Assembly: GCA_963795855.1 (NCBI GenBank)
Contig: CAWCIZ010000003.1
Location: 288,001-352,000 of the forward strand
Direction: 5' to 3'
DNA from: Vulcanimicrobiota bacterium
GTDB taxonomy: Bacteria; Vulcanimicrobiota; Vulcanimicrobiia; Vulcanimicrobiales; Vulcanimicrobiaceae
Length of the DNA stretch: 64,000 nt
This document shows positions 26,670 through 62,785 of this stretch, piece by piece. Positions within the stretch are counted from its first letter, which is position 1; each line of letters begins with the position of its first letter. The translations under genes and the position numbers were made by a program. The notes beneath the pieces are model-generated. The model worked only from the letters and a program-made list of their open reading frames with translations. It ran no database searches and was not told the DNA's origin.

Positions 26670-26772
26670 GAAGGCGCTCCGCCCTAGGCTGCGCGCCCCC
26701 CACTTTCGGGGGGCCGCCAAAAACTCATGGCGCCTCAATGTTTGAGCTTTGCAAACCTCCCCGAGGGCGCGG
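26670..26772 (-). repeat. Single copy of the GGCGC-hairpin intergenic element
   Basis: Shares AAGGCGCTCCGCCCTAGGCTGCGCGCCCCCC, TCATGGCGCCTCAA and CTCCCCG(A/T)GGGCGC with the 62347-62785 array. Confidence 0.85.
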
Positions 26773-26785
26773 CAAACACTGTGCT

Positions 26786-28150
26786 CTAGCTGGATTTCGC
26801 GCGGGTCCGAGGATACGCGCTCGTTTCGAAAAGCCCGTTGGGCTCGAGGAGCGGAGTAATGCCGCTTGCCCGCTGTACCTGAGCGCCCAGCGCGGACAGC
26901 ATCTCTTCCAGGCGTTCGTAGCCGCGGTCGATGTATTCCAGACCGATGATCTCGGTTTCGCCGGCCGCAGCTAAGCCTGCCACGACGAGCGCGGCACCCG
27001 CGCGAATGTCCGGCGCTTCAACGGGCGCTCCGGAAAGGCGATCGACGCCCTTGACGACGGCGGTGTTGCTTTCCATCGAAACGCGAACGTCCGCGCCCAT
27101 GCGAGCAAGTTCGTTCACGTACGAGAAACGCGCGTTGAAGATCGATTCTTCGACCACACTGTTGCCGGGAGCCGTGCATAGGAACGACACCATTTGCGGC
27201 TGCAGATCGGTGGGGAAGCCCGGATACGGCGCGGTGAGAATATCGGTTCCTCCCGTCAGCGCGTCGGCTTGGACGCGAATCCAGTCGTCACCTGACGTGA
27301 CGCCCGCTCCGCACTCTTGCAGCTTCAGACTCAACGCTTGCAGATGTTCGGGCAGGCAAGCCGTGACGGTGACATCGCCGCGCGTCGCCGCACCGCACAG
27401 CAGCAGGGTTCCGGTGACGATGCGGTCCGGAATGATCGTGTATTCTACGCCGTGCAGATCGCGAACGCCGTCGATGACGATCGTGTCCGAGCCGGCGCCG
27501 CGAATTCGCGCACCCATCGCGCACATAAAGTCGGCAAGGTCGGCCACTTCGGGTTCCATCGCCGCGTTGCGCAGCGTAGTGGTTCCGTCGGCCAGGACCG
27601 AGGCGAGCATCGCGTTCTTCGTTGCGCCTACGCTGGGCGTGCGAAATTCGACGTCCGCGCCTTGCAAGCGTTTTCGTTTCGACGTTGCGATCAGGAAGCC
27701 GCCCTCGTTTTTCACCTCGCATCCGAGCGCGCGAAATGCGTGTTCGTGCATGTCCGTCGCACGCGTGCCTAAGACGCATCCGCCCGGAAGCGGCACTTCC
27801 GCGCGTCCGAAGCGTCCGAGAAGCGGACCAACCAAATCGAAACTCGCCGCGAGTTTGCGCACGAGCGTGTACGGCGCTCGGTGTGATGCGACGTTGCTCG
27901 CATCGATCGTGACGGTACCGTTGCCTTCGTACCGCAGCCGCGCGCCGAGTGCTTCGAGCAGCGACCACATCACCGACACATCGGTGATGTGCGGAACGCG
28001 GTGGAGCGTCACTTTGCCTTTTGCAAGCAGCGCCGCGGCCATGATGGGCAGCGCCGCGTTCTTCGCTCCGTGCGTGCGCACAGAACCTTCGAGGGCCGCG
28101 CCGCCGCGCACGCGCAGCGTTGTTTCAAGGCGATCGAGTGTGTTGTTCAA
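26786..28150 (-). CDS. murA: UDP-N-acetylglucosamine 1-carboxyvinyltransferase
   Basis: GAKNAALP, LPGGCVLG, PYPGFPTDLQ, IDRGYE. Confidence 0.96.
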   Translation of the reverse strand: MNNTLDRLETTLRVRGGAALEGSVRTHGAKNAALPIMAAALLAKGKVTLHRVPHITDVSVMWSLLEALGARLRYEGNGTVTIDASNVASHRAPYTLVRKLAASFDLVGPLLGRFGRAEVPLPGGCVLGTRATDMHEHAFRALGCEVKNEGGFLIATSKRKRLQGADVEFRTPSVGATKNAMLASVLADGTTTLRNAAMEPEVADLADFMCAMGARIRGAGSDTIVIDGVRDLHGVEYTIIPDRIVTGTLLLCGAATRGDVTVTACLPEHLQALSLKLQECGAGVTSGDDWIRVQADALTGGTDILTAPYPGFPTDLQPQMVSFLCTAPGNSVVEESIFNARFSYVNELARMGADVRVSMESNTAVVKGVDRLSGAPVEAPDIRAGAALVVAGLAAAGETEIIGLEYIDRGYERLEEMLSALGAQVQRASGITPLLEPNGLFETSAYPRTRAKSS

Positions 28151-28638
28151 ACGAGTTTACTATCCTCGAGCGGTTCGCACGTGAGTACGCGCGCGTCGTA
28201 AGGGCCTCCGCGCAATTCGAGCTGCATGCCGCCTGCGGGCGTCGTCCGGACGAACACCTCGCTCCATTGGTTTCCCTCGAGCTCCAGCAGATCCGCATGA
28301 TTGCCCTGGAGCATCCCGGCGAAGCGGCGGTGTTTCGCGTCCGCGAGGCGCACTCGTCCGTCGGAGTAAAACCCCGCGACCAAGTCGACGGCGTCGTCCG
28401 CGGCGCGATAGTAGCGCGCTCCCGAATCGGCGGACTCGATGATGAAGACGCTGCGGCGTGGCTGCGCTTGTTCCCGCGGAGTTGTTTGGGGCGCCGGTTC
28501 AGGCCTAGGCGGAGGGGCGGCTCGATCTCCAGGAACCGCGCAGCCGCGGCGATCCATGACGACATAGCCGGCGAACGCCAGAGCCGCAAGCTCCAGCGCG
28601 ATACCTGCTAAACGGGTCCAACCGGGCGCACGTCGCAC
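28147..28638 (-). CDS. Hypothetical membrane-anchored protein
   Basis: N-terminal TM and Pro-rich linker; fills the atpC-murA gap. Confidence 0.55.
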   Translation of the reverse strand: MRRAPGWTRLAGIALELAALAFAGYVVMDRRGCAVPGDRAAPPPRPEPAPQTTPREQAQPRRSVFIIESADSGARYYRAADDAVDLVAGFYSDGRVRLADAKHRRFAGMLQGNHADLLELEGNQWSEVFVRTTPAGGMQLELRGGPYDARVLTCEPLEDSKLV

Positions 28639-28660
28639 CGTTCCGAGGTTCGACGGCGCG

Positions 28661-29075
28661 CTAGTGGTGTCCGGTCAGGCGAAGTTTAGCGTTCGCAAAG
28701 TCGATGGCTGCTTGCTCGCGCGCGAACACGTGCGGCTCGCCCGCCGCCTTCTGCCGTTCCGTCGCGTCCGCAAGTTGGGCGCGCGCTGCCGCCACGTCGA
28801 TTTCTTCGAACCTGAGCGCATCGTCCACCAGCACGGTCACGCGATCGGGAAGCGCCTGCATAAAGCCTTCGCTGGTTGCGAGACTCGAGGCGGCGCGGGA
28901 CGCCGTTTTCGACGATGTTCGCGCGCAGCACGCCCGGCTTGAGCGCACTCAAGAACGGCGCATGGTGCGCGAGAATGCCCTCTTCACCTTCGGTCGTCAC
29001 GGCGATCACCAGCTCGGCGTCGCCGTCGAAGATCACTTTCGTCGGCGTAATGAGTTTAAATGGGACGGTACTCAT
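28661..29075 (-). CDS. atpC: ATP synthase F1 epsilon subunit (frameshift near 28885)
   Basis: EGEEGILAHHAPFLSALKPG in one frame, EGFMQALPDRVTVLVDDA in the next. Confidence 0.9.
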
Positions 29076-29077
29076 GT

Positions 29078-29110
29078 TAAAGGGCGCTCCGGCCCACGCT
29101 GCGCGCCCCC
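29078..29110 (-). repeat. Truncated copy (terminal hairpin only) of the GGCGC intergenic element
   Basis: AAAGGGCGCTCCGGCCCACGCTGCGCGCCCCC between atpD and atpC. Confidence 0.7.
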
Positions 29111-29117
29111 GCGCCTT

Positions 29118-31592
<2,475 letters not shown>

Positions 31593-31593
<1 letters not shown>

Positions 31594-33093
31594 TAGAAGC
31601 TCTTGTTGAACTCCGTCAGCGCAGACTTCCAGGTTCTTCTTGGTATCATCGGTGAGCTGAGCGCTTTGCGCGATCGCCTGCGGAACGTCCGGATGCTTTT
31701 CGTGCAGATACGCGATGAAGCCGCGCGCCCAGTTCTGCAGCCGTGAGGTTTCCACGTCGTTTACGAAGCCCTTCGTCGCGCCGTAGATGATCGCGACCTG
31801 ATCTTCGTTTGCCATCGGCTGATATTGCGGCTGCTTGAGCAGCTCGGTCAGCTTTTCGCCGCGCATCAACTGCATCTGCGTGGCTTTGTCCAAATCGCTG
31901 GCGAGCTTCGCAAATGCGGCGAGATCGCGGTATTGCGCGAGCTCCAGTTTGAGCTGACCCGCGACGCTCTTCATCGCTTTCGTCTGCGCCGAACCGCCGA
32001 CGCGCGAGACGGACAAGCCGACGTCGACGGCCGGGCGAATGCCTTGGAAGAAGAGTGCCGGCGTCAGATAGATCTGACCATCCGTAATCGAGATCACGTT
32101 CGTCGGAATGTACGCGGAAAAGTCTCCTGCCTGCGTTTCGATGATCGGTAACGCCGTCATCGACCCGCCGCCCAGATCGTCGGAAAGTTTCGCCGCGCGC
32201 TCGAGCAGACGCGAGTGCAGAAAGAATACGTCGCCCGGATACGCCTCTCGGCCCGGCGGACGCCGCAGCAGCAGCGACATCTCGCGATACGACTGCGCGT
32301 GTTTGGTGAGGTCGTCGTAGATGATGAGCACGTCTTTGCCCGAGTACATCAGCTCTTCGCCCATTGCGGCGCCGGCGAACGGCGCGATCCAACGCAATGC
32401 GGCGGCATCTGACGGACCGCAGGTCACGATGGTCGTGTAGTCCATCGCGCCCTTTTGTTCGAGGATCTGCGCGAGCGCGGCAACCGTCGAGTTCTTCTGA
32501 CCGATTGCGACGTAAATGCAGAAGACGTTCTTGCCCTTTTGATTGATGATCGTGTCGATCGCAATAGCGGTCTTGCCGGTGCTTCGATCGCCGATGATCA
32601 GCTCGCGCTGCCCCTTACCGATGGGGATGAGCGCGTCGATGGCGCGGATACCGGTGAACAGCGGCTGCTTGACCGGCTGGCGCTGCACGACCGACGGCGC
32701 AACGTTTTCGATGGTGCGGTATTTTCGCGTTTCCACGGCGCCCTTGCCGTCGACCGGCGTACCGAGCGGATCCACGACGCGGCCGAGCAGCGCTTCGCCG
32801 ACGGGTACTGAGGCAATGCGTCCGGTGCGGCGCACTTTGTCGCCTTCCTTGATCTGCGAGTCGTCGCCCATGATGACGACGCCGACGTTGTCCTCTTCCA
32901 GGTTGAGCGCGACGCCCTGCAACCCGTTCGGAAACTCGACGAGTTCCGACGCGCGCACGCTTTGCATACCGTACACGCGAGCCAGGTTCGCGCCGACCTC
33001 GATGACCGTGCCGACTTGGTCCTCTTGGATTTCGGCTTTGAAGTTCGCTATTTGCTGCTTGAGAATTCCGGCGATTTCGTCTGCGTTAATCAC
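31593..33093 (-). CDS. atpA: ATP synthase F1 alpha subunit (an extra base near 31628 fuses it to atpG as read)
   Basis: [18 protein letters not shown]; removing one A restores ...[11 protein letters not shown] with TAATG overlap onto atpG. Confidence 0.96.
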
Positions 33094-33096
33094 TTG

Positions 33097-33416
33097 AAAA
33101 GGCGCTCCGTCCTAGACTCCGCGCCCCCCGTAAACGGGGCCCCCGATCCGCAGGGCGCATACACATAGTTTTCAGTTTGCACCCTCCCCGAGGGCGCCCA
33201 TTTAAACCTAAAACGTTTTAGACTCCGCGCCCCCCGTAAACGGGGCCCCCATCCGCAGGGCGCATACACATATTTTCAGTTTGCACCCTCCCCGAGGGCG
33301 CCCATTTTTACCTAAAACGTTTTAGACTCCGCGCCCCCCGTAAACGGGGCCCCCGATCCGCAGGGCGCATACACATGGTTTTCAGTTTGCACCCTCCCTG
33401 AGGGCGCCCATTTATA
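33097..33416 (-). repeat. Three tandem copies (about 104-106 bp) of a structured intergenic element
   Basis: Units start at 33113, 33219 and 33323 (TAGACTCCGCGCCCCCCGTAAACGGGGCCCCC...GCACCCTCCCCGAGGGCGCCCATTT). Confidence 0.95.
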
Positions 33417-33418
33417 CG

Positions 33419-33961
33419 TTACGTTTTTGCGAACAGCGTTCGCGTTAATTCCTCGAGACGTCCCTCGACCGAACCGTCGATTCGGCGGTCGCCCATCATG
33501 ATGCGTACGCCGCCGATGAGGTTCGGCTGCACGCTCTGCGTGACGCTGAACTTGCGTCCGTACAGCTTTTCGAGCCGCTCCACCAGCGAACGCAGTTCCG
33601 CGGTAGACAGGTCCTTGGCGGAGGCTACCGTCAGCGGTTCCTCGCCGCGCGCCTGCACCTCCAGCGCGTCGTACTGCCGGACGATTTCGCGCAGCAACGT
33701 CTCGCGGCGTTTTCGAACGAGTAGCAGCAGCGTGTGGAGCGCAACGTCGTTCGCTTTGCCTTCGAACGCAGTGGAAAGGACGCGCTCTTTTTCTTTGCGG
33801 TCGATGACCGGCGAAAGAAAAAATCCCTTGGTCGTTTCATCCTCGTATACGGCGTTGCTCAGCGCGTGCAGATCCCGGCCGACCCTTTCGATTTCGTGCC
33901 GCTCTTGCGCGAGTTGGAAGACGGCGACCGCATAACGCCGCGCGACGGTTTCGTTTGCCAT
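33419..33961 (-). CDS. atpH: ATP synthase F1 delta subunit
   Basis: VARRYAVA, LIGGVRIMMGDRRIDGSV. Confidence 0.93.
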   Translation of the reverse strand: MANETVARRYAVAVFQLAQERHEIERVGRDLHALSNAVYEDETTKGFFLSPVIDRKEKERVLSTAFEGKANDVALHTLLLLVRKRRETLLREIVRQYDALEVQARGEEPLTVASAKDLSTAELRSLVERLEKLYGRKFSVTQSVQPNLIGGVRIMMGDRRIDGSVEGRLEELTRTLFAKT

Positions 33962-34455
33962 TAGTTTCGGCCGCCGCCCCGTTCGAGATTGGAGAGAAAC
34001 GAACCGACGAGTTGGGCGTTCAGCCCCGTGTCGACGCGTTGCCGCGCTTGAGCGCGCGCCAGCGTCAGGGCTTGATCGAGCAGTTCTTCGCGCAGCCGCT
34101 CCCGCGCTGCGGCCCGGCTCCGGTCGAGCTCGCCTTCGGCGTTGGCGATGCTGCGCTCGCCGGCGCGGCGCGCCTCCGCCAGAATCGCTTCGCACTCGGT
34201 TTTTGCCTGCGCTTCGACGCGCTGTTTGATCGCGACCGCGTCACGCTGAGCGCGATCGATTTCGCCGCGCAGCGATTCGAGCTGCGCCTTGGCCTGGTCG
34301 CGATGGCGTTCGGCTTCCGCAATCTGCGCGTTCGCGTTTTCCTGCGCTTGCAGTACCATCGGCTGAATGAATTTGAACCACATCCACACCAGCACCAGGA
34401 TGAACAAGACCGCCGAAAGGACTTGGCTCCATAGCGCGACGGCTTCGTAATTCAT
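33961..34455 (-). CDS. atpF: ATP synthase Fo b subunit
   Basis: N-terminal TM plus long helical stalk; operon position. Confidence 0.85.
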   Translation of the reverse strand: MNYEAVALWSQVLSAVLFILVLVWMWFKFIQPMVLQAQENANAQIAEAERHRDQAKAQLESLRGEIDRAQRDAVAIKQRVEAQAKTECEAILAEARRAGERSIANAEGELDRSRAAARERLREELLDQALTLARAQARQRVDTGLNAQLVGSFLSNLERGGGRN

Positions 34456-34886
34456 CGCGCACCTTCCGCGAGCGCGCGTTCGACCATGAGGCTTGCGAGG
34501 TCGCGCACGGTTTGCGGCTCGTTGGCGCGCGCGGCTTGCAGTTCGGAACTCACCGTGCGCTCCGCTTGCGCGGCGATCGCTGCTGCTTTAGCGTTGCTTT
34601 CCGCAGCAATCGAGCCCGCTTCGTTCGAAGCGTTGGCCCGTTGTTGCGCGAGCAACTGCTCGGCTTCCCGGCGCGCCGTCGCGCGAATGCTCTCCGCCTG
34701 CGTGCGCAATTCGTGCGCCTCCGCTTGATACCGATCGTAGTCGTTGGTCACGCCGTTGATGTATTCGCGGCGCTTGACGATCGCTTTGGAAACCGGACGA
34801 ATGAAGACCACGTTCAAAATCGCGAAAAAGATCACGAAGTTGATCAGCTGGACTATCAGCGTTCCGCCCGATGGTTGGAGAAACAT
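34452..34886 (-). CDS. ATP synthase Fo b'-like subunit
   Basis: TLIVQLINFVIFFAILN...RPVSKAIVKRREYI; second b-type gene. Confidence 0.85.
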   Translation of the reverse strand: MFLQPSGGTLIVQLINFVIFFAILNVVFIRPVSKAIVKRREYINGVTNDYDRYQAEAHELRTQAESIRATARREAEQLLAQQRANASNEAGSIAAESNAKAAAIAAQAERTVSSELQAARANEPQTVRDLASLMVERALAEGAR

Positions 34887-34906
34887 GCGCGATCGTGGCT
34901 CCGCTC

Positions 34907-35185
34907 TTACTTCGCGAACGCGGCCATCAGCGAAGGCACCTTCGCCAAAACGATGAGGATGTAGAATGCGAGCGCGATGGCGATGAACGGAACGGCTTCC
35001 AACACGCCGACGCCAAGGAACATGAACGTGAAGATGTTCGAGCGCGCTTCCGGCTGACGCGCGATCGCTTCGACGGCTTTCGACGCGACGTTGCCGTCGC
35101 CGACGGCTGAACCGAACGCGACGCCTGCGATGATGAGGCCGAACGCGAGGAACGCCATGCCGATGATAAACGCTTGCGGATTCAA
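34907..35185 (-). CDS. atpE: ATP synthase Fo c subunit
   Basis: EAIARQPEA, GVLEAVP; TTG start after GAAAGGAA. Confidence 0.93.
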   Translation of the reverse strand: MNPQAFIIGMAFLAFGLIIAGVAFGSAVGDGNVASKAVEAIARQPEARSNIFTFMFLGVGVLEAVPFIAIALAFYILIVLAKVPSLMAAFAK

Positions 35186-35198
35186 GGACTTTCCTTTC

Positions 35199-35930
35199 TC
35201 AGTGGTCCTCCGCAATCGCCAGCGACAGATAGACGATTGCGAGAAGAGTGAAGACGAACGCTTGAATGGTGCCGACGAAGAAATTGAAAAACTGAATGAA
35301 GAAGGGCACGACGGTGACGGCGAGCGAGAGATTCACCGGGCCGAGCATAACTTTCGCGGTGATGATCGAAGCGATGATGATGAACAGCAGTTCGCCGACG
35401 AAAATATTGAAGAACAGCCGCGCCGCGAGGGTCGTGGGACGCAAGATCTCGTCGACGACGTTCAGTGGAAACAGAATCGGAAAAGGCCGGAAGAGATGCT
35501 TGAGATAGCCCGGTCCTTTTTTGCGGAACGCGACGAACTGAATCAAAAAGAACACCGTCAACGCGTATGGGACGACGGTGTTGAGATCGGCGGTCGGCGA
35601 GCCGCCGAACGGCAAGCCTACGACCTTGAAGGGAAGCATGCCGAACTGATTTAGGAGAAAAATGAAGATGAACAGCGCCACGAAGAAGGGCACGAACGGC
35701 TCGCCCGGCGGGCCGAGCACGCCGTATGCCAAGTCGGCGATATAATTCATCACGCCTTCGACGATCGCTTGTCGCTTCGTGACGCGCGCGCTGCGGTAGC
35801 TGCCGCCGATGAACGCGAACAAAATGAGCGAAACCGCCATGACGAGCCACGTCGTCATAACGGTATCGGCGTGCACCTGACCGATGACGGGCCAGTTCCA
35901 CGTTATATGCTCGCCTATTTGCTCGTGCAC
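35199..35930 (-). CDS. atpB: ATP synthase Fo a subunit
   Basis: SPTADLNT, RPTTLAARLFFNIF, IQAFVFTLL. Confidence 0.95.
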   Translation of the reverse strand: MHEQIGEHITWNWPVIGQVHADTVMTTWLVMAVSLILFAFIGGSYRSARVTKRQAIVEGVMNYIADLAYGVLGPPGEPFVPFFVALFIFIFLLNQFGMLPFKVVGLPFGGSPTADLNTVVPYALTVFFLIQFVAFRKKGPGYLKHLFRPFPILFPLNVVDEILRPTTLAARLFFNIFVGELLFIIIASIITAKVMLGPVNLSLAVTVVPFFIQFFNFFVGTIQAFVFTLLAIVYLSLAIAEDH

Positions 35931-36373: not shown

Positions 36374-36563
36374 GCGGAGCGGATTGCATCGGCGACCAGG
36401 CGGAAGGCCGCATATCCGCCGAGCACCACGCCTGCGAAAAACGCATAGATCACAATGTCGGCGCGACCGAACCGATGGTCGAGCAGGATTCCGACGAGAA
36501 TAGCGACCACGACCGTGCCGGCGAACGTTCCGCCCGCCGCCACGATCGCCAAACTCCCTTCAT
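36370..36563 (-). CDS. AtpZ/AtpI 'gene 1'-like small membrane protein (probable frameshift near the start)
   Basis: AILVGILLDHRFG motif; first gene of the atp block. Confidence 0.65.
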
Positions 36564-37711
36564 GCCGAGGCTTGAAACGGTTGCGGGTAGGCAGCGTCGC
36601 GCAGGCGCGCGAGCAGCCAGTCGACGATGCGTTCCGCCGCACGTCCGTCGCCGTACGGATTCACCGCCCGGGCCATGCGATCGTAGTGAGCGCGATCGGT
36701 CAGCAGCCGCGTCGCGGCGTGCACGATGCGCTCTCTGCCGTTGCCGGTGAGCTCGAGCGTCCCCGCCTGTACGCCCTCGGGACGTTCCGTTTCTTCGCGC
36801 ATGACGAGCACCGGCTTTCCCAGACACGGCGCTTCTTCTTGAATGCCGCCCGAGTCCGTCAAGACGAACGTGCAGTCGCGCACCGCGCTGACCATCTCCC
36901 CGTAGTCGAGCGGATCGTCGAGAATGACGCCGTTTTGCGTGCCCAGCACGGCATACGCGACCGGCCGCACGCGCGGCGAAGGATGCACCGGCCAAATGAT
37001 CTGCGGGCGCATCGGCAACTGCACGATCTCGCGCATCGCTTCGCACATTTCACGCATATGCACGTGATTTTCGCGCCGGTGCGCGGTCACCACGATAACC
37101 GGCCGGGACGGATCGATCTTCTCCCAGCCCGGCGGTTTAGAGAGATCGGTTCGATCCGCGGTCTGTAAGAACGCGTCGATGACCGTGTTGCCGGTAACGA
37201 TGATATTCTCTTGCGGAACGTGCTCTTGCAGCAGATGCTCGCGCGCGAGCTGCGTCGGCGCGAAATGATACGACGCGATCGTTCCCGTCAGGCGCCGGTT
37301 CATCTCTTCGGGAAACGGCATCCACGGATCGCTCGTTCGTAAGCCCGCTTCCACGTGGCCCGTTGGAATTTGCTGGTAGAATGCGGCGAGCGCGGCGGCA
37401 GTGCTCGTCGCCGTGTCGCCGTGCACCAGCACGACGTCGGGTCGCGCAATTTTCAACACGCCTTCCATGCCGATAAGCACGCGCGTCGTGATATCCGTCA
37501 GCGTTTGATCCGCCGTCATGATGTCCAGATCGTAGTGCGGACGGATCTCGAACAGTTCGAGCAGATCGTCGAGCATCTGCCGATGCTGCGCGGTGACGCA
37601 AACGATACCCTCGATTTGCGGATGCGACGCGAGCGCGTGCACGACGGGCGCCATTTTGATGGTGTCCGGACGCGTTCCGAAGACGGACATGACGCGCAGC
37701 GTTTGGCTCAT
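36560..37711 (-). CDS. wecB: UDP-N-acetylglucosamine 2-epimerase (non-hydrolysing)
   Basis: VFGTRPDTIKMAP, HVEAGLRT, TDSGGIQEEAP, NPYGDG. Confidence 0.95.
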   Translation of the reverse strand: MSQTLRVMSVFGTRPDTIKMAPVVHALASHPQIEGIVCVTAQHRQMLDDLLELFEIRPHYDLDIMTADQTLTDITTRVLIGMEGVLKIARPDVVLVHGDTATSTAAALAAFYQQIPTGHVEAGLRTSDPWMPFPEEMNRRLTGTIASYHFAPTQLAREHLLQEHVPQENIIVTGNTVIDAFLQTADRTDLSKPPGWEKIDPSRPVIVVTAHRRENHVHMREMCEAMREIVQLPMRPQIIWPVHPSPRVRPVAYAVLGTQNGVILDDPLDYGEMVSAVRDCTFVLTDSGGIQEEAPCLGKPVLVMREETERPEGVQAGTLELTGNGRERIVHAATRLLTDRAHYDRMARAVNPYGDGRAAERIVDWLLARLRDAAYPQPFQASA

Positions 37712-38803
37712 TTTAAATGGCGCATGAAGACCGCGCCGACGTAAACGTCCCCCGAGGGCGCCGCAGAAATCCGAGCAAAGCCGCCCGCGAGAAACAGCGC
37801 GACGGCGCCGAGCACGATGCAGATCGCGTAGATCAACAGCACGGCTTGGCGCACGTTCAAACCGTAGCGGAAAATAAGTCTGATGATGAAAATGGCCGCG
37901 GTCCGCCTCCGTGATTTTCTTTCCGGAACGCGCGCGCCGGTAGATCGCTGCGGCCGTATCGAGAATCGGGAGCGCAAGCACGACCAGCGGCGCGATCAAC
38001 CCGACGGCGATCGCCGTTTTGCTGGTTCCCATAATCGAAACGGTCGCGAATACGTAGCCGATGAAAAGCGAACCCGTATCGCCAAGAATGATGCGCGCGG
38101 GATTGAAATTGAACGGCAGAAATCCAAGCGCGGCGCCGGCAAGCGTCACGACGACCAGTGCCACCACCGGGTTCCCTTTCGTGAGCGCGATTGCGAAAAG
38201 AAAGATGCACGAGATTGCGGTGAAGCCGGTGAGCAGACCGTCCAGCCCGTCGATGAAATTGATGGCGTTCATCATTCCCAAGTACCACAGCAGCGTGATG
38301 GGAAGGCTGAACCAAAGCGGAAAGTCGACGTACTGATGCGTGATCGGATTCTGCACGTCCGATATCGTGAAGCCGTACACCATGGAGATGCCGGCGACGA
38401 CGATTTGCGCGATGAACTTGTAGCGCGGGCGCATGGTCATCAGGTCGTCCCACAGACCGACGCCCAGAATCAGCATGCTTCCGAAGAGCAGTCCGATGAG
38501 ATTGTGCACGCTCGCGAGCTGGTCGCGCAACTGGTCTTGGAGCGTGTCGTGCGGATCGACGGGGAAGAATCCGTGGACGTGTGAGAGCGCTATGCCGAGC
38601 ACCGCGAACAGGGCGAACGCGAAGCCGAAAAACACCGCAACACCGCCGATACGCGGTTTCGGCACGTCGTGCATCCGCCGGTCGCCGACCTCGTCCATCA
38701 TGCCGACGTGGTGCGCCAGTCGAATGATGAACGGCGTGAGCAGCGTGGAAACCACGCCCGCAAGCACCAGCGCCGCTATGTAAATGTAGACGGGCGCCTT
38801 CAC
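37708..38803 (-). CDS. MraY-family UDP-GlcNAc:undecaprenyl-phosphate GlcNAc-1-P transferase (TagO/WecA); frameshift near 37880
   Basis: NAINFIDGLDGL, FNFNPARIILGDTGS, ADRGHFHH. Confidence 0.9.
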
Positions 38804-39912: not shown

Positions 39913-39971
39913 AACTGCGGTTAAGAGAATTAGGCCCGCCCGGCGTTTGGCCTCTTTAGAATACGGCGGTT

Positions 39972-42666: not shown

Positions 42667-42678
42667 GTGCGTGCTTTC

Positions 42679-43209: not shown

Positions 43210-43244
43210 CAGGCGATTCTACCGTGCGGAAGAACGCCCCCTCC

Positions 43245-48645: not shown

Positions 48646-48648
48646 CCG

Positions 48649-51091: not shown

Positions 51092-51127
51092 CTGTACCTG
51101 GAGTATCGGCGGGTCGGGGACGCGTCT

Positions 51128-53794: not shown

Positions 53795-54776
53795 GTCCGA
53801 TCAGATGAGCAACAGCGTCGAGGATCTCGCCGCGAAACCGCTCCAGCGATTCCGGCGAATCATTGCCCGGCTTGCGAACCTGCACGTGCGGCACGCCGTA
53901 CGGCGCCCATTCTTGCGAGTTCAGCCGGAAGTAGCGATGTTCGAAAGCGACTACCGTAGGCCTGCGCATCGCGCTTGCGACATGCGTCGCACCGGTGTCC
54001 ACCGTCACGACCGCCCGTGCGCGTTCCACGACGGCGGCCCAGCGATAAAACGGCAGGCCGCCCAGGAGCACGTCGGCCAGACGCGACTCCGCAATCGCTT
54101 TGACGTACTGTTCGCACTCGGGCGCATACGTCACCACGAGCGGGACGCCGAACCGGCGCAGCCGTTTCATGAGCGTCAGCGTTGAATCGAACGTGCTGCC
54201 GTCGCGAAACCATCGCAAGCCCAGATGGAGTACGATCGGACTGTCCGGCAAATACGCGCTTGCCGCGCGATCTTCGTCGTTGACGTACAGCCGCAACTCG
54301 TCGACTCGCTTAGTTGCACCTGCCAGCGCGACCAAGTCCAACAGCTGCTGCACCTCGTGACGCACGGGCCGTTGCGGATTGCGATCGGCAAGACCGGGAT
54401 CCGCTTCGGAGATCATCAGGCGGTTCACGAACAGCGGCGCGGTCAGGCGCGCTGCATAGCGGCGCACGTACGTATATCCGATGCGCAGGCGCGCGCCAGT
54501 TCCGCCGGCGATGGCGAGATCGGTGCTTCGAGGTGCCAGCGCGATCGCGATGTCGGCGTTTCCCCGGTAGCGTCGACCAAAGTCACGCGGACGAACGTCG
54601 CTCGTGTACTCGACCAGTTCGTCGACGTCGCCGTTTCGCTCCATGACGATGCGATTGTACGGGCTGCACACCATCGTCAAATGCGCGTCGGGAAACGAGG
54701 CTCGCACCGTGGCGATTGCCGGCGTCGAAAGAATCAGATCGCCGATGCGATCGGTGCGCACCAAAACGATGCGCAT
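53787..54776 (-). CDS. Glycosyltransferase family 9 (heptosyltransferase-like)
   Basis: RTDRIGDLILSTP, VDTGATHVASA. Confidence 0.85.
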   Translation of the reverse strand: MRIVLVRTDRIGDLILSTPAIATVRASFPDAHLTMVCSPYNRIVMERNGDVDELVEYTSDVRPRDFGRRYRGNADIAIALAPRSTDLAIAGGTGARLRIGYTYVRRYAARLTAPLFVNRLMISEADPGLADRNPQRPVRHEVQQLLDLVALAGATKRVDELRLYVNDEDRAASAYLPDSPIVLHLGLRWFRDGSTFDSTLTLMKRLRRFGVPLVVTYAPECEQYVKAIAESRLADVLLGGLPFYRWAAVVERARAVVTVDTGATHVASAMRRPTVVAFEHRYFRLNSQEWAPYGVPHVQVRKPGNDSPESLERFRGEILDAVAHLIGHA

Positions 54777-55685
54777 CAATCGCCGGCCCGCACGCGTTCC
54801 AACTCCTCGAAATAGGCCTCGCCGGCGAGACCGCGTGCCGCGCGCGCTTCGCGCGCCGTCAGCGGACGATCGATCGAAACGTCCGCGAGCGCCGCGCGGT
54901 ACCGCCGTGCCATGTCGATGCCGCGCATCCACTTGTGCAAAAGGCGCTGGACGGCGTTGTCGCCGGTCGCCAGCGCGGTGCGCCAATGCGGATGCAGGCG
55001 CTGGAGCTGAACGGCGGTGCGCGCCTGCGCCTGCGCTTGACGGATCATTCTTTCCACGCTGCCGGCCCGCGGCCGCGGCTTGTAATGAAAAACCAAGGCG
55101 TTCTTGTTGAACACCGCTTTCACGCCGCCGAAGCGCAGCCGCAGGCCGACGTCGATGTCTTCCCACCCGTACTCGGCGAACGTTTCGTTGAATCCCCCGA
55201 TCTCACGAATGGTTTGAAGCGGCACCGAAACGTTCGTCGTCCAGAAATAGTTGCCGCTATAGTTCGTCAAATTCCACACCGGCGGCGGGAGATCGTCGAA
55301 CGACTCGACGTTGATCGCGGCGCCGCGAACGATCGCCAGCGGATGAGCCGCGTGCGTACGCAGATGCTGTTCTACGAAATTCGGCAACGGCAGGACGTCG
55401 TCGTCGATGAAGATGATGCGCTCGCCGCGCGCGCGTGAAATGCCGGCGTTGCGTCCTTTTGCCAGCCCGGAATTCGGCTGCTCGACGATGGCGAAGGGGC
55501 AGGCGGCGCGCTGCCTCGCGCGAGCTGAGGACCGCGGGAGTATCGTCCGTCGATCCGTCGTTGACCAGAACGACTTCGTACGAGTCCGCGGGCACGGTTT
55601 GCTCGAAGCACGCGTCCAGCACGCGCTCGAGCAGAGCGGCGCGATTGTACGTGCAGAGTTGGATCGTTGCCGTTAAACCGCTCAC
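54776..55685 (-). CDS. Glycosyltransferase family 2 (frameshifted)
   Basis: CTYNR, VNDGSTD, FIDDD, YGWEDIDVGLRL. Confidence 0.85.
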
Positions 55686-55700
55686 CCGCGGCCGTTTCGA

Positions 55701-56671
55701 CTAGGGCTTCTTCGGCGCCTCGGACTGCACGGGCATGCCGTCGATGCGAATGGGAGGGAAACCCACGATATCGTAGGTGCCCGAGGCCACCGCGATGCCG
55801 CAATCCTTGAATGCCGCAGAATGTCGCGAAACATCGCATCCTTGATTTCGCGAATGCCGCGGTCGGGCACGATGAAACGCAGCGCGAGATCGACCCAATT
55901 GTCGGTCATTTCGTAAAAGACCCGCGGCTCCACGTTCGGCGGCTTCAAGTCGAATACGTGTTCCAGATGCCGCCGCGCCTCGCCCGTCATCTGCGCGATC
56001 GGCGTCGTGTGCGCGCGAGCGACTTCGAGCAGGATCTGCTCGGCACGTTCGTAGTCGTCGTTATAGCCGACGCCGACGTGAATCTCTTCCCAAAGGAACG
56101 GAAAATCACGTGAATAGTTGTAGACCGGCTGATCGAAGATCACGCCGTTCGTGACGGTTACGATGCGCCCGCTGTACTGACGCGCCATCACCCACATCGC
56201 CGGATCCGCTTGGCTCTCGACGGACGGCGGCTGTCCCATCTCGAGCACCGTCGTTTGAAAGAAATCGAGCGCGATCACCTCGCCGCGCACGCCGCCGATG
56301 ATGACACGGTCTCCGATGCTGAACGTCTTACCGCGCAAAATGACGACGTATCCGGCGATGGCGATGATGAATTTCTGCAGCGCGAATGCGACGCCGGCAC
56401 CGACGAGGCCGCCCACCGTTGCGAGATGCGCATTCGGTCCGACCCAGATCGAGATGAGCGCAACGATGAAGAACACTGCGGTAAGCAGATTGATCGCTTG
56501 GTGACCCCAAAAGCGGAAGCGCTCCGCCCACGAGAACGAGCGCACGATCCGCAGCAGATAGTGCAGCGCATAGCGCGCAATGACGACGACCGCGATGAGC
56601 GTAGCGGTCAGCAGCACTTTCTCGCCGTTGAGCGCATTGACGCCTACGAGCGTCACGTGATAGAGGTGCAC
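55701..56671 (-). CDS. Small-conductance mechanosensitive channel (MscS family); frameshift near 55810
   Basis: GAGVAFALQ, FSIGDRV, VRGEVI, YNYSRDFPFLWEEI. Confidence 0.88.
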
Positions 56672-56711
56672 GAGAGGGTCATTCCCCGCTCGCAGCGCGT
56701 TTAGTGCGAAA

Positions 56712-57737
56712 CTACCGGGCGCTCAGCAGCGACTCGGCGGTTGCAATCACGCGCGGCACGTCGAGATGAGCGATGCACGCGTAATCCGGACACGTTTCTT
56801 TTCGTTCGCCGGGACGGCACGGGTAACTCGCGCGTACGACTGCGGTGCGTGCGCCAATCGGCGCCCAGCGCTCCGGCGTGTCGGTTTGAAATGGAAAGAT
56901 GCCGACCGTCGGCGCACCAACCGCCGCGGCTACGTGCATCGATCCGGTCGTTATCCCGACGAAGAGCCGCGCGGATTGCGCGAGCGCGCCGAACACGCCG
57001 ATCGTGGTCCTGCCGGCGACGTCGTGGATTTCCCCGTCGTCCGCGGCCCGCGCGAGAATGTCCGCGTTGATCGCTGCATCCGCCGTCGAGCCACTCAGCA
57101 GCACCGGCATATCGAAGCGCGCTCGGAGTGCGCGTGCAAGCGCGGCCCACCCTTCGGTCGGCCACAGACCGCGCTTGGGCGCGACGGCGTTCGTGGGATG
57201 CAGTACCACATATGCGTCGACGAAAACGTTCAGCTTCTGCAGCAGCGCCGCGGCCTGCGTGCGGTCTGCGCCGGTTGGCGTGAAATGCGGCGCCGTATCG
57301 GTTGTGTCGCACGCGATCGCGCGCGCATAGTCGAGCACGATCTCCGACCAGTGGCTGGTTACGTCGCCGAGTTCGCTTCGCACCGGCACGCGATGGGTGA
57401 AACGCCGCGAATACAGCCGCCTTGCCTGCCCGACGCGAACGGGTATGCCGGCTGCGTGTGCGATGCGCGCCGTGCGTGCCGTCGCCCACGTCACGACGCA
57501 CGCGTCATAGCGGCGCTCGCGCAGGCGATGCGCGACCTCGCTTTCATCTCCGTCGTCTACGAGCACGCCGTCGATATCCGGCACGCGTTCGAGCGCCTCG
57601 CGATGAGAAGGCAGCGTCAATGCATCCACCTCGCGATACCGCTCCCGCAGCGCGCGCGCGACGAGCGAGGCCATCAGCGAATCGCCGATCCCGCCTCCGG
57701 CGCAATAGACCAGCGCTCTAACGGGAGCGTTCGCCAC
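56712..57737 (-). CDS. Glycosyltransferase family 9 (heptosyltransferase-like)
   Basis: GGIGDSLMAS, TGSMHVAAAVGAPTVGIF, PERWAP. Confidence 0.85.
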   Translation of the reverse strand: MANAPVRALVYCAGGGIGDSLMASLVARALRERYREVDALTLPSHREALERVPDIDGVLVDDGDESEVAHRLRERRYDACVVTWATARTARIAHAAGIPVRVGQARRLYSRRFTHRVPVRSELGDVTSHWSEIVLDYARAIACDTTDTAPHFTPTGADRTQAAALLQKLNVFVDAYVVLHPTNAVAPKRGLWPTEGWAALARALRARFDMPVLLSGSTADAAINADILARAADDGEIHDVAGRTTIGVFGALAQSARLFVGITTGSMHVAAAVGAPTVGIFPFQTDTPERWAPIGARTAVVRASYPCRPGERKETCPDYACIAHLDVPRVIATAESLLSAR

Positions 57738-58610
57738 CGGTTCCGTTGCCGAGCGCGCGTGCGAGTTCGACGGTGTACATCCCGTCCAGCAATTGCGCGC
57801 GCGCGAAGCCGCGAATTGCTGATGGGATGGCCTCATCCGTCGCGGCGCCCGCAAACCACGGCAGGAGCGGCTCGAGCGCTTTGGCACGCAGCAAATTCGC
57901 GGCATGCGCTCCGGTTGCCGACTTCACGCGCGGGCTTGCATTCTTCTGCAAAAAGCGCACGGCCATGCGCGCCTTTTCGACCGACTTTTGAAGTTCGGAT
58001 TCGAGCGTTGCGTCGTGCGGCGGCTTGACGTGCCAAATGTACGCGTTCCATGCGAATTTCCCGCGGATCCCGTGCTCGCGCAGACGCACGCCAAGTTCCG
58101 TATCCTCCCACCCGTACAAATGAAACGCTTCGTCGAATCCACCGACCGCGTCGAGCGCAACCTTCGGCACCGAAACGTTGCACGTGCAGAAAAAGGCGCG
58201 CGAATAGTTCGCGAGCGAGGGTTTCGGCCTGACGTCATAGCCGGGAACGTTGACGATCGGGCCGCTGACGGCGAGGTTGCTCAGCGTATGTGCCGCGTCG
58301 TGAGCCGACAGAAATCCGGGCGGCGCGTACACGTCGTCATCGCAAAACAGCACGAGGTGCCCGCTCGCCACGGAGATGCCGCGATTGCGCGCGGCGCCCC
58401 GATTCGGGCTGCGCCTCGAAAACGTACGACTATCGGATACGGTTGGGTGGAACGCGCGCGTTCGACGATTTCGTGCGTTGCATCGCTCGACCCGTTATCG
58501 ACGACCACGACTTCGAACGTCGGGGCGCCCACTTGTTTGCCGAATGCGTCGAGCGCGCGTTCCAAGTACGCGGCGCGGTCTTTTGTTGCGATGACGATGG
58601 AAAGACGCAT
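57718..58610 (-). CDS. Glycosyltransferase family 2 (frameshifted)
   Basis: SIVIATKDR, VDNGSSD, FCDDD, YGWEDTELG. Confidence 0.85.
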
Positions 58611-58613
58611 ACG

Positions 58614-59840
58614 TTATCCCCGATGCAGCGAAAGAACTCGTTCCGCCATGCGCGCCGCCGCGCCGACGTGTTCGCGATACAGCGCGCTCAGTGCCTGCGA
58701 CGAACGCTCGAGCCACCCGTCGTCGCGGAGACGGTCGAGCGTGACCCGCGCGACGCGGCCCGGCGTCAGCGTGCCGTGCAATTCTTCGATAAGCATTTCA
58801 CCCGCATCCATGTTCGGTTGCGTGTGGAACGTGAACCGCCGGGCATACGCGACGACGGCGGCGCGTTTGAGCGGCGCGCCGACCAGCGGAATGCGGTCCA
58901 GATATGTGAGCGGCCCGTTGATCGTCGACCAGTTCGGGCGCGTTCGCCGGGCGTGCACGCGATAGCGGGCTTACCTAGCGCGGCGAGTTCGATCATCTTC
59001 GTTCCCGGAATCGTCACCGTCAGGTGCGCTACGCGCGCCGCGGAGCAGAGCGTTGCGCACGATCGGGAAACCGAGCGCTGCCGTCGGCAGTCGTCAAAAA
59101 GGCGCTTCCAATTGCGTTCGCGGACGGTGCCGCGCCGCGCGAACATACGCGGATCGCCGCCGCGTTCTACCGCGTCGCGAACGGCTGCTATCTCGGTGAA
59201 CGGCGAGATGCCGAACGCGATCGGCAGCGAGGGATCCTCGCGCCGCATCGTCAGTGCGGCCGTAAAGAAAAACGGCATGAGATGCTCGACTTCGTAGCGG
59301 CGCGATCCGGGCATGAAGAGTACGCCGCCCGCGGGCGCTCCGCTTTCCGGCGGCGAGAGCGCTTCGACGCAGCGCGCCGTCGATCGCGAGATTGCCGACG
59401 CGGTCGATGCGATCGCGCGCAACGCCCCACGCTGCGAGCTGTGCCGCGTTTGCCTCGTCGACCGCGAATGCGCAATGCCGTTGCCGGCAGCGTAGCGCGG
59501 CCGCGAAAATTTGTACGTTGCCAGCGCACCGCCGAAGCGCTTGCGCAGGCGAGCCGCGTGCATCAAGTCCCCGCCCAGATACAGCACCGCGTCCGCGGCT
59601 TGCGGGGCTCCGTCGACGCGCGCGCCGAAAGCGATGCGCAGGTACGTTTTCGGATCGTAAACGTGCGCCGCGGAAAACCATTCGCGAACCACACTGTGCT
59701 TCGCGGCCGGTCGCGTAATCGTCGGGCACGTAGAAGACGTGCACGTCGCTTCGCGGGTCCCGAGCGTAAAGTTCGCGCAGAAACGGACGCAGCCACCCGG
59801 CGGTTTCGCCCGGGCCGTTGCACGTGACCGCCAGGCGCAT
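58614..59840 (-). CDS. Lipid-A-disaccharide synthase (LpxB)-like protein; multiple frameshifts
   Basis: NGPGETAGW, VGNL, MPGSR, TIPGT, FHTQPN segments across frames. Confidence 0.65.
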
Positions 59841-60341
59841 CAGCGATACCGCTGCAAGATGCGCGCGATGATGTCGGTCGTGCTCGCTCCCTGAACGTGC
59901 GGCGCAAGGCGAATCACGCCGCCATGCCGCAGGACGACGTCGCGTTCGGGCAACTCCTCTTCGCGATATTGCGCGCTCTTCACGTGAACGTCAGGTCGCA
60001 CGCGATCGAGCAGACACCTCCGGCGTGCGTTCGTCGAATCCCACGACCGCGTCCACGCTGCGCAGCGCGCACAGAATGCGTGCGCGTTCTTCGAACGGGC
60101 ACGATCGGACGGTTCTCGCCCTTTATGCGGCGTACCGAATCGTCACCGTTCAACCCGACGATCAGCGCGTCGCCTTGTTCGCGCGCCCACGCGAGATACG
60201 ACACATGTCCGGCGTGCAGCACGTCGAAGCAGCCGTTCGTGAAGACGACACGCTTGCCGTTGCGCGCGCAAGCGCTTCCCGCCAAGCGCCGCATCGTCGA
60301 GCGACAAGCAGATTGCCGAAAAGCGCTTCAGCGCGTTCCAT
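59840..60341 (-). CDS. rfaE2: D-glycero-beta-D-manno-heptose 1-phosphate adenylyltransferase; frameshifted
   Basis: [33 protein letters not shown]. Confidence 0.85.
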
Positions 60342-61310
60342 GATCGACCAGCGCAAGAATTTCATCTGCGGAGGCCGTTGCCGTGCCGAGTTTTTCGACG
60401 ACGGCGCCGGCGGCATAATTTGCGAGCTGCATCGCCAGCTCGATCGATGCGCCCGCCGCGAGCGCGAGTGAGAGCACGGCGATCACCGTGTCGCCGGCAC
60501 CGCTGACGTCGAAGACCGTGCGCGCAACCGATGGAATGTGCAGGCGTTCCCGTCACGCCCGAAGAGCGACATCCCATGCTCGCCACGCGTGATGACGACG
60601 TAGCGGCAATCCAACGATCTGCAATAACGCGGCGCCGGCGCGTTCGAGCGAGTCTTCGTCGCCGATGGCAATACCGGCGGCCTGCGCCGCTTCGTGCGCG
60701 TTGGGCGCGACGCACGTGACGCCGCGAAACAGCTGGAGATTTTGCGGCTTCGGATCCGCCACCACGATCGGACATGCCAGCGCCGCTTCGACGATTTCGC
60801 GGCAGAACAGCCCCTTCGCGTAGTCGCTAAGGACGACGGCGTCCGCATCGGCGCGCATACGTGCGAACGAAATCGTACGAGACGGTCGCGATCGTCCGCG
60901 GCGAGCGGCGCGGTCGATTCCCAATCCGCGCGCACGACTTGCTGATTGTGCGCGACGACGCGCGTCTTGCGCGTCGTAGGGCGGTCGCTCACGCGCACGA
61001 GGCCGTCACCCGAGATGCCCTCATTGGCGAGGATGTCCGCCACGTAGTGCGCGAACGCGTCCGTCCCGATCGCACCGGCGAACGTTACCCGCGCGTCCAG
61101 CGCGCGCAAGTTGTTCGCGACGTTTCCCGCGCCGCCGAGCGTGAACGAGTGGTCCGTCACCTGCACCACCGGCACCGGCGCTTCCGGCGAAATGCGCGTG
61201 ACCGTCCCCCAAATCCATTCGTCGATCATAACGTCGCCCACGACGAGCAAATGCCGTTTGCGCATGCGTTCGAAAAGCGCGCGCGCATCCGGCGCCGCAA
61301 GCATCTGCAT
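60328..61310 (-). CDS. rfaE1: D-glycero-beta-D-manno-heptose-7-phosphate kinase; frameshifted
   Basis: [40 protein letters not shown]. Confidence 0.88.
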
Positions 61311-61314
61311 GGCT

Positions 61315-61908
61315 TTACCGCTCGAACATGATGCGCTGTTCGACCAGATCGCAGACGATGTGCGCCATCGTCTGATGTACTTCTTGCACGATGGCGGAGT
61401 AGCCGTCGGGGCCGAGCAGGACCAAGTCCGCGATAGCCGCGACCGTTCCGCCGCCGTTTCCGGTGAAGGCGACGGTGACTGCATCGCGGCGCTTGGCCTC
61501 TTCGAACGCAAGGACGATGTTCTTCGACGTGCCGCTGGTCGTCAATCCGACAACGACGTCGCCCGGCTGGACGAACGCTTCGATTTGGCGGCGGAAAACG
61601 TGATCGTATCCGTAGTCATTGCCTATGGCCGTCAACGTCGAGGTATTCACCGACAGCGCTTCGCTATGCAGACCGGGCCGCTCGCGCAGAAACCGTCCAC
61701 TCAACTCGGCGGCCATGTGCTGCGCCTCGGCAGCGCTGCCGCCGTTGCCCATCCACAGCACTTTGTTGCCGCGCCGCAGCGCCTTGACCATCGTATCCGC
61801 GATCGCTTCGCACTGCGCACGGTAATGCGGCGCATCGTAAATGCCGCGCCGGTCGGCGATCAGCTCGTCGAAACCGCGCTTGCCTTTGACGTCTACGGTT
61901 CTATCCAA
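61315..61908 (-). CDS. gmhA: Phosphoheptose isomerase
   Basis: GNGGSAAEAQH, TAIGNDYG, TTSGTS, QEVH; TTG start after AGGAG. Confidence 0.93.
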   Translation of the reverse strand: MDRTVDVKGKRGFDELIADRRGIYDAPHYRAQCEAIADTMVKALRRGNKVLWMGNGGSAAEAQHMAAELSGRFLRERPGLHSEALSVNTSTLTAIGNDYGYDHVFRRQIEAFVQPGDVVVGLTTSGTSKNIVLAFEEAKRRDAVTVAFTGNGGGTVAAIADLVLLGPDGYSAIVQEVHQTMAHIVCDLVEQRIMFER

Positions 61909-62342
61909 AACAGCTCCTGACCCAGCGAGACGAGTTCGCCGTTCTCCGGTACGATGCGCGTGATGACGCCTGCGTGATCGCTCGTGATTTCGTTGAACAG
62001 CTTCATGGCTTCGAGAATGCACAACACTTGACCGGCCTCGACGCGGTCGCCGACTTTCACGTAAACTTCGGCGTCGGGCGAGGGCGAGCGGTAAAAGACC
62101 CCAACCAGCGGCGCGGTGACCTTTTTGACGTTCGCCGACGCGGAGGGCGCGCTCGTGCCGGGTGCGAGTGAAGACGCGTCCGCGGACGGGAAGGCACTTG
62201 CCGCCGCACCGGGGAGCACCGTGATGCCGGCCTCCCGCCGGACGAGTTCGAACACCTTGTCGCCGATTTTGACCTTGAGGGCGTCCAGGTCGTGCTCGTG
62301 CATGATCTCGAGCAAGTCCTTGAGCGTCTGCGTTTCGTCCAC
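61893..62342 (-). CDS. accB: Acetyl-CoA carboxylase biotin carboxyl carrier protein
   Basis: APLVGVFYRSPSP, EAMKLFNEI. Confidence 0.95.
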   Translation of the reverse strand: MDETQTLKDLLEIMHEHDLDALKVKIGDKVFELVRREAGITVLPGAAASAFPSADASSLAPGTSAPSASANVKKVTAPLVGVFYRSPSPDAEVYVKVGDRVEAGQVLCILEAMKLFNEITSDHAGVITRIVPENGELVSLGQELFWIEP

Positions 62343-62346
62343 TTTT

Positions 62347-62785
62347 AAAGGCGCTCCGCCCTAGGCTGCGCGCCCCCCATCGGAGATGGGGCCCCCAGTA
62401 CTTCATGGCGCCTCAACATGCCGGCGATATGCGCTCTCCCCGTGGGCGCCGCAACGATCGGATCAATCGAAAGGCGCTCCGCCCTAGGCTGCGCGCCCCC
62501 ATCGGAGATGGGGCCCCCAGTACTTCATGGCGCCTCAACATACCGGCGATATGCGCTCTCCCCGTGGGCGCCGCAACGATGCGATCGATCGAAAGGCGCT
62601 CCGCCCTAGGCTGCGCGCCCCCCATCGGAGATGGGGCCCCCAGTACTTCATGGCGCCTCAACATACCGGCGATATGCGCTCTCCCCGTGGGCGCCGCAAC
62701 GATGCGGATCAATCGAAAGGCGCTCCGCCCTAGGCTGCGCGCCCCCCATCGGAGACGGGGCCCCCAACGTGGGCGCCGCAACGAT
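62347..62785 (-). repeat. Tandem array of three full (122-124 bp) and one partial structured intergenic elements
   Basis: Units start at 62347, 62470, 62592 and 62716 (AAAGGCGCTCCGCCCTAGGCTGCGCGCCCCCCATCGGAGATGGGGCCCCC...). Confidence 0.95.

Follow-up and report, generated by a model that had tools for sequence, protein, structure and literature searches.

What are the four spacers, lying before mreB, atpC, atpA and accB, that in the 64,000-nucleotide stretch analysed here (the window: positions 288,001 to 352,000 of contig CAWCIZ010000003.1 from a Vulcanimicrobiota bacterium) share one structured sequence in the same orientation, in three cases with a GGAG shortly ahead of the start codon? 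A preliminary description, made from the letters of the window, hesitated between a cis-acting translational switch and a non-autonomous mobile element settling at translation starts. Our comparisons indicate that the four spacers are copies of a small, folded and apparently mobile repeat wedged between tightly packed genes. The reading to which we give a probability of roughly 0.7 is that of a structured repeat of about 100-125 nt, dispersed through the genome and non-autonomous, restricted to one family of Vulcanimicrobiota (Eremiobacterota) and working in the manner of the mycobacterial interspersed repetitive units (MIRU), reportedly introduced by Supply et al. in 1997: a short open reading frame (ORF) that usually runs through a copy would rescue the translational coupling of the two genes that the copy separates. 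This bridging mini-ORF is the main feature of the element, and both it and the MIRU precedent had escaped the preliminary description.

Copies in the window

The four loci first described are all present where they had been placed, on the minus strand, and the gene names used agree with Pfam matches. A decayed fifth copy before wecB had been overlooked, as had the tandem nature of the arrays at accB and atpA. The features are the following.

26670..26772, minus: full single unit at the murA-mreB junction (model match 26669-26719)
29076..29117, minus: short copy at the atpD-atpC junction, terminal hairpin only (model match)
29072..29125, minus: bridging ORF of 17 codons at atpC (ORF analysis)
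33097..33417, minus: tandem array at the atpH-atpA junction (tandem repeat of 2.9 x 104 nt at 33113-33417)
33090..33411, minus: possible chain of four ORFs before atpA (33411-33382, 33376-33308, 33305-33276, 33269-33090)
about 37708..37764, minus: decayed fifth copy before wecB, 5' module and A/T-rich end only (model E=0.086)
62345..62797, minus: tandem array at the hisS-accB junction (tandem repeat of 3.4 x 122 nt at 62347-62766)
62345..62797, minus: possible chain of four ORFs before accB (62797-62648, 62651-62535, 62541-62413, 62419-62345)
62346..62397, minus: best copy of the conserved 3' core, with C-run/G-run hairpin, terminal hairpin and A/T-rich tail (alignment and model)

The cleanest bridge is found at atpC, where the copy lacks the upstream hairpin and its ORF starts 8 nt inside the end of atpD to stop on an ATGA overlap with the atpC start. 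The last ORF of the candidate chain before atpA likewise stops on a GTGA overlap with the start of the gene, and in this array only the last unit has a complete terminal hairpin. The array before accB opens with an ATG overlapping the hisS stop, and the last ORF of its candidate chain (62345..62419, minus) ends 2 nt ahead of the accB start; two peptides of this chain gave no Pfam match. At the decayed copy, the upstream frame reads through and stops on an ATGA overlap with wecB (start 37711), a junction that holds a full copy in the congener G007. The unit between murA and mreB, composed of the 5' helix module, the middle hairpin and the terminal hairpin, ends, as had been noticed, ahead of the gene's own AGGAG (26665-26661), the start of mreB being TTG 26654.

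In the accB core, the GGAG (62357-62354) lies within the 3x3 GNA/GNA internal loop of the terminal hairpin. The distance of exactly 11 nt reported between GGAG and start codon holds at GTG 62342 (accB), GTG 33093 (atpA) and ATG 29075 (atpC), and it is the mode in the window's genome (13 of 24 terminal copies); it is not a general rule, since in other genomes a spacing of 10 nt (36 of 117) is commoner than one of 11 nt (16 of 117). The frames of atpC (28686-29075) and atpA (30727-33093) shift near their ends, which suggests indel errors in the assembly, and the G-run lengths of the arrays may therefore be erroneous as well.

Bridging ORFs, start codons and fold

Among 141 terminal copies, 82 have the start of a long ORF 5-8 nt past the terminal GCGCC, against 6.2% under two null models, and at 67 the distance is 6-7 nt; 131 of the 163 copies with a downstream gene call lie in the sense orientation. 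After 25 of the 82 close-start copies were dropped for lack of a usable upstream stop, 57 were kept for the analysis of bridges, a bridge being one ORF that runs from -8/+12 nt of the upstream stop to no more than 10 nt from the downstream start, with gene ends taken from a rough gene caller. Such an ORF was found at 49 of the 57 loci, against 9 and 5 in the frameshift controls, in which 1 or 2 bases were added. The same holds for four congeners (31 of 41 loci, controls 10 and 4), for which 22/22 (G001), 30/41 (G002), 30/37 (G005) and 30/50 (G007) matches were used, and for metagenome loci (16 of 20, controls 10/40).

The 114 pooled bridging ORFs have a median of 41 codons and use all three frames (72/17/25), so the peptide itself is not what is kept. 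Their 3' ends stand at -4 relative to the downstream start in 53 cases, at +1 in 34 and at 0 in 10, and 27 show the -4 overlap at both ends. When no stop is provided by the A/T-rich tail, NTGA serves as the downstream start in 27 of 28 copies, versus 21 of 54 otherwise (p=2e-7); the congeners give 21 of 21 versus 8 of 20. Bridges were also seen in 7 of 15 copies lying antisense, where there is no GGAG to supply (controls 2 and 1); this count was made on the short form alone with the earliest in-frame starts, and one with starts placed too far downstream gave 4 of 26.

The GGAG itself appears to be an aid. A close start follows 75 of 109 copies with GGA and 7 of 32 without it (p=3e-6), a link that is weaker in congeners (42 of 60 versus 9 of 19, p=0.10). 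Pairing of GGAG with the canonical anti-Shine-Dalgarno sequence is worth about -5.8 kcal/mol, and that of the GCA or GAA variants, which keep the same spacing, -0.7 to -1.5; such non-GGA copies precede smc, smpB, gmd and an aminotransferase gene. At accB, atpA and atpC, the GGAG is predicted to be mostly paired, with an unpaired probability of 0.22-0.39. The window genome's own GGAG peak falls 5-8 nt before starts, and that of the element, at 10-12 nt, lies further away. Since the variants keep the spacing and the genomic peak is nearer, the GGAG is best described as a useful, dispensable and slightly distant Shine-Dalgarno sequence.

From 5' to 3', a unit consists of a start codon, 10-20 variable bases, the 5' module, a G-run/C-run palindrome, a six-G run, the terminal hairpin and 5-8 A/T-rich bases, with a core of 95-110 nt and tandem units of 104-123 nt. 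The C-run of the palindrome opens the variable middle hairpin, and in alignment A1 (columns 3-7) the conserved G-run 5' of this hairpin, to which no pairing partner is assigned, makes up the palindrome together with the C-run. The covariation of the stems claimed in the preliminary description was borne out: across an alignment of 110 cores, pairing holds in 99.3% of 1682 cells, 107 cells are changed on both sides, and none of 500 shuffles equals the covariation score, which is much lower for slid controls and is inflated by relatedness among copies. The search pattern imposed the 10 invariant pairs of the outer stems, so only the 6 variable pairs count as covariation. The 5' motif already pointed out is real and has a further role as the left arm of an additional covarying helix. 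In its commonest form, this module is a 6-bp helix closing a loop with a variable linker of 23-29 nt; all six pairs form in 47 of 71 copies, versus 9.6% when arms are swapped between loci. The linker was considered as a guide and rejected, its longest match to its own flanks being 6.0 versus 5.9 to other flanks. A second type of hairpin is nested in the stem at L045, L047, L048 and L037 and, in the window's genome (G000), at C3:401485, C4:173648, C4:260126 and C6:61571.

The six-G run splits 4+2, so the middle and terminal hairpins can form together. The middle hairpin is capped by a triloop in 87 of 109 cases, with C(GNA)G in 49, against a background of 9% GNA among 1402 such genomic triloops, and loops of the RNA types GNRA or UUCG occur in 3 cases only. 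C(GNA)G-type mini-hairpins are exceptionally stable in DNA and far less so in RNA (PMC13037366). The triloops thus point to structure at the DNA level, which hints at mobilisation as single-stranded DNA. Folding-energy z-scores of single copies were mixed (0.8 to -3.6 for RNA, -1.0 to -2.4 for DNA) and not used, and neither an intrinsic terminator nor a sigma-70 promoter was flagged at the copies.

Distribution, turnover and competing explanations

The genome of the window (3.06 Mb, 86% complete) has 64 profile matches at E<=1, the weakest of them partial, in 45 loci, and 46 covariance-model matches at E<=1e-4. According to rough gene calls, co-oriented genes enclose 36 of the loci, the downstream gene shares the strand of the element at 40, and at 4 the element runs antisense to the genes on either side; there is no replichore bias beyond that of the genes themselves (29 of 45 versus 58% of genes). 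The neighbours are mixed housekeeping genes with no common pathway, such as prfA, ffh, glmS, smc, gyrA, smpB, rbfA, argR, fliG and genes for ribosomal proteins (65 of 90 flanking frames were compared with Pfam, the ribosomal ones being named by eye). In the ribosomal-protein superoperon (L209; C2:79309-97830 of this genome), six or more copies, full or remnant, are present, among them an array of four units ahead of rplQ.

Matches to the search pattern occur in 7 of 7 congeners, 19 of 24 genomes of the family, none among 5 from the order and 1 among 11 from the class, the last looking like chance, and those to the covariance model in 18 of 32 sampled genomes of the family and in none of 68 from elsewhere in the phylum. 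The genomes G014 and G036, marked as unpublished, count among the negatives for the pattern and for the Y1 transposase and support nothing else here. Some genomes have no copy, and the highest number is 66. A scan of species genomes gave at least 122 loci, nearly all, among the matches listed, from Vulcanimicrobiota/Eremiobacterota, and the named relatives of AccB belong to Ca. Baltobacteraceae. Records labelled Limnocylindria, Binatia and Acidimicrobiaceae carry 19, 66 and 2 copies; these are not counted as a spread to other phyla, because their flanks are 63-79% identical to proteins of the window's genome, as in records labelled Eremiobacterota. Such genes stand beside the element in L085, L116, L138, L148 and L149, whose other-phylum labels may reflect mislabelling or mis-binning. 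Viral contigs and phages gave no match, and plasmids 8 short ones at chance level; among sequencing runs, no RNA data set holding the element was listed. The element, which the preliminary description did not recognise as a named family, has no match in Rfam, either at gathering level or at relaxed E (the sole Rfam match in the window is a tRNA gene at 4026-4109, minus strand), and the published literature, searched chiefly in open-access main texts, yielded no paper on it. As far as this search goes, the family is undescribed; the kind, that of the MIRU design, is already known.

A longer sister form, with an extra hairpin after the tail, is found in other genera in either orientation and is not bound to starts (7 of 20 sense). 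In the single-contig genome G011, 13 of the 15 long-form copies run against the fork and 2 with it (p=0.007, post hoc); they have outer inverted arms, recognised by eye, and two hairpins with AYGGAY loops, which match no Rfam family. The RNase P RNA of the window's genome (Rfam 250.8 bits) is interrupted by a long-form copy, about 110 nt in length (L205:10488-10600; about 512490-512600 of C1), in a helix that we take to be P12. In-frame copies inside protein genes number 6 of 371, three in dxr and the others, identified by eye, in dnaE2, valS and a hydrolase gene. That in dxr is antisense and stands at the same place in three records (L160, L229, L236). G011 (L246:1400-1700 and about 3300-3650) has one copy in the dnaE2-like gene and a second, inverted one just upstream of that gene. 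With copies in genes, in RNase P RNA and in either orientation, the family is a general interspersed repeat, of which the start-bound form seems to be one way of surviving in operons. For annotation, this is a warning: the element yields false small genes and false riboswitch candidates, and it enters core genes and RNase P RNA.

When orthologous junctions were compared across congeners, as the preliminary description had proposed, the same junctions were filled in some and empty in others, and the element stood at different junctions. Between hisS and accB, there is a plain stop/start overlap in G001, G016, G021, G022 and G023 and a filled site in six genomes of the genus, including that of the window; between atpH and atpA, G002 and G005 have a single unit and G007 none; the atpD-atpC junction is empty in the congeners G002, G004 and G007. 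One same junction may hold different subfamilies in different genomes. Of 86 congener loci mapped on the window's genome (among the matches listed, with repeats and some remnants included), 60 fell on sites without a full element, 25 on filled ones, and 1 was unmapped. In a stricter set of 33 distinct junctions filled in congeners, 22 are empty in the window's genome, 10 filled and 1 a remnant; of the 22, 17 have a gap of 10 nt or less, as against some 41% among 2150 gene pairs. Nine of the 22 are -4 overlaps, one with a remnant visible by eye. Finally, a pair of copies from unrelated loci of this genome shows 96% identity across 100 nt, which gene conversion could also yield, and G001 and G007 each have 13 pairs of copies at least 85% identical at unrelated loci; the median identity of 20 orthologous pairs is 73%.

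From these patterns, a scenario in four steps may be proposed. The repeat would reach new sites by copying, probably in the form of single-stranded DNA, its hairpins being recognised by an enzyme acting in trans. The occupied sites, as comparison of genomes shows, are mostly start codons at tight operon junctions, with a start codon, often NTGA, at both ends; local slippage would make the tandem arrays. A ribosome leaving the upstream gene would re-initiate at the left start, translate a throw-away ORF of about 41 codons, melt the terminal hairpin, stop on the true start or within 2 nt of it, and re-initiate there, aided by the exposed GGAG if present. Finally, copies that break this relay in housekeeping operons would be purged or repaired by point changes, and such purging or repair would account for the position, the orientation bias and the fixed spacing.

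Several observations weigh against this scenario. No mobilising gene was found, DDE families and integrases not having been searched. Of the terminal copies, 59 of 141 have no start at 5-8 nt; the three sets of bridging ORFs share orthologous loci and are not independent, and gene ends were roughly called. Remnants persist at some of the empty sites, so decay accounts for part of the turnover. Of the target duplications that the preliminary description had proposed to look for, there is a small shift (11.3 versus 10.2), long ones being rare; repeats of 9-15 nt including the start region on both sides were seen in a few cases (L363, L320). As for the RAYT/IS200-like partner it suggested, a Y1 transposase (PF01797) is present in none of 8 genomes of the genus and in 1 of 24 other genomes of the family (72-97% complete). 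In the window's genome, no match to TnpB, IS110, DUF559 or reverse transcriptase was obtained, and no mobiliser was recognised among 361 flanking ORFs by clustering and by eye (Pfam being used for 65 of them). The two GIY-YIG genes, one small and the other judged by eye to be uvrC, were rejected as mobilisers because the element does not flank them. Of the mobile-element alternative first outlined, then, the partner was not found, while a non-autonomous element at translation starts that supplies initiation signals fits the empty sites, the differing junctions, the 96% identical copies and the link between GGA and a close start.

A bolder reading, which the sequences leave doubtful, is that of a single-stranded-DNA element that targets start codons and is moved by an enzyme belonging to none of the families searched (Y1, IS110, reverse transcriptase). 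Such an element would replace the native initiation region of essential genes by its own hairpin-locked GGAG. If so, precise removal would be costly because essential genes would be translated only through the mini-ORF, and tandem copy number might tune subunit ratios, as in the ATP synthase operon.

That the copies are the relics of an old, now dead burst of insertion, no longer mobile, whose present pattern arose through unequal decay, exact loss between the duplicated starts, gene conversion and slippage, we consider quite unlikely. The existence of remnants, the lack of a recognised enzyme and the likeness of orthologous atpA copies across the genus (up to 88-90%) are in its favour; it accounts poorly for the near-identical copies at unrelated loci in three genomes, for the variation in copy number and for the different subfamilies at one junction.

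Very unlikely, in our judgement, is a cis-acting host regulatory RNA that masks the GGAG and thereby controls downstream translation, whether as thermometer, riboswitch or protein-bound switch. The strong and mostly paired GGAG, its correlation with a close start and the covarying stems are what such an RNA would display, and the switch first imagined relied on a competing G-run hairpin. The two hairpins are, however, compatible, the atpC copy does without the upstream one, non-GGA copies keep the spacing, and the GGAG lies beyond the genomic peak. Moreover, the loops are of DNA type, Rfam has no match, the flanking genes share no pathway, sites turn over within the genus, and copies are also found antisense, within coding sequences and within RNase P RNA. 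Least probable of all is an insertion aimed at starts by translation itself, through an RNA intermediate or ribosome-marked transcription bubbles, beyond any filtering by selection: the sharp spacing, the strong sense bias and the occasional 9-15 nt repeats speak for it, and the lack of a reverse transcriptase in the window's genome, the DNA-type loops, the unmatched linker and a sister form that ignores starts and follows replichores in G011 speak against it.

Comparison with known systems

The MIRU-like repeat of Vulcanimicrobiota was compared with known families by their descriptions. It differs from cis-regulatory leader RNAs in not being kept upstream of functionally related genes across relatives. 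Of the marks of miniature inverted-repeat transposable elements (MITE), terminal inverted repeats are not apparent in the start-bound form (outer inverted arms being seen by eye in the G011 copies), target-site duplication takes the form of NTGA at both ends in a subset and of 9-15 nt repeats in a few, and no autonomous partner was found among the five enzyme families searched in the window's genome or among the 361 flanking ORFs, DDE families not being searched.

Neisseria REP2 and Borrelia IR-A/IR-B lie directly upstream of genes and bring stem-loops, a ribosome-binding site, a start codon and a promoter (PMC3184786). The present repeat also sets stem-loops, a ribosome-binding site and a start directly before the gene, but their promoter was not detected at its copies, which lie inside operons. 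Rickettsia palindromic elements, described as palindromic and inserted in frame into protein genes (PMC10969869), are of similar size; here, in-frame copies exist as well but are rare (6 of 371), and no peptide is conserved, as three frames are used and stem changes alter residues. The REP/BIME/REPIN sequences mobilised by TnpA-REP (RAYT; see also PMC3733652) have a GTAG-type tetranucleotide at the hairpin's 5' foot, form inverted doublets and flank tnpA-REP (PMC6006769). Short G+C-rich extragenic hairpins, clustered copies and hints of single-stranded-DNA structure are common to both. By contrast, alignment A1 has no conserved GTAG-type word, the element's GGAG stands in the 3' arm, the units form direct head-to-tail arrays, the genus rich in copies has no Y1 transposase, and the repeat is tied to start codons.

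The closest likeness is with MIRU, which are in daily use for typing, even though the idea that their small ORFs preserve translational coupling rests on little. They are described as intercistronic sequences of 40-100 bp in 40-50 copies per genome, with G+C-rich internal inverted repeats, an internal ORF that overlaps the flanking genes, often with a spacing of -4, empty and filled sites, and a 4-nt repeat at both ends (PMC12548453, PMC3184786). The 45 loci (46 model matches) of the window's genome fall in this range, 36 of them between co-oriented genes; an internal ORF joins both neighbours, 53 of 114 such ORFs ending at -4, and the inverted repeats are also internal and G+C-rich. Empty and filled sites with a tetranucleotide repeat at both ends are found too, in a subset (27 of 114). 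The core of 95-110 nt and the units of 104-123 nt are at or above the upper limit given for MIRU, the hosts are outside Mycobacterium, in another phylum, and the repeat has a modular fold of several helices with subfamilies, three frames, and copies antisense, in genes and in RNase P RNA. By description rather than by sequence, then, it appears to work like MIRU without being MIRU by host. The same design in a distant phylum offers natural junctions by the hundred, filled and empty, copies in both orientations and a compensation that can be measured (NTGA where the tail brings no stop). The coupling-rescue model thereby becomes open to direct test, and a mechanism based on single-stranded DNA is worth looking for.

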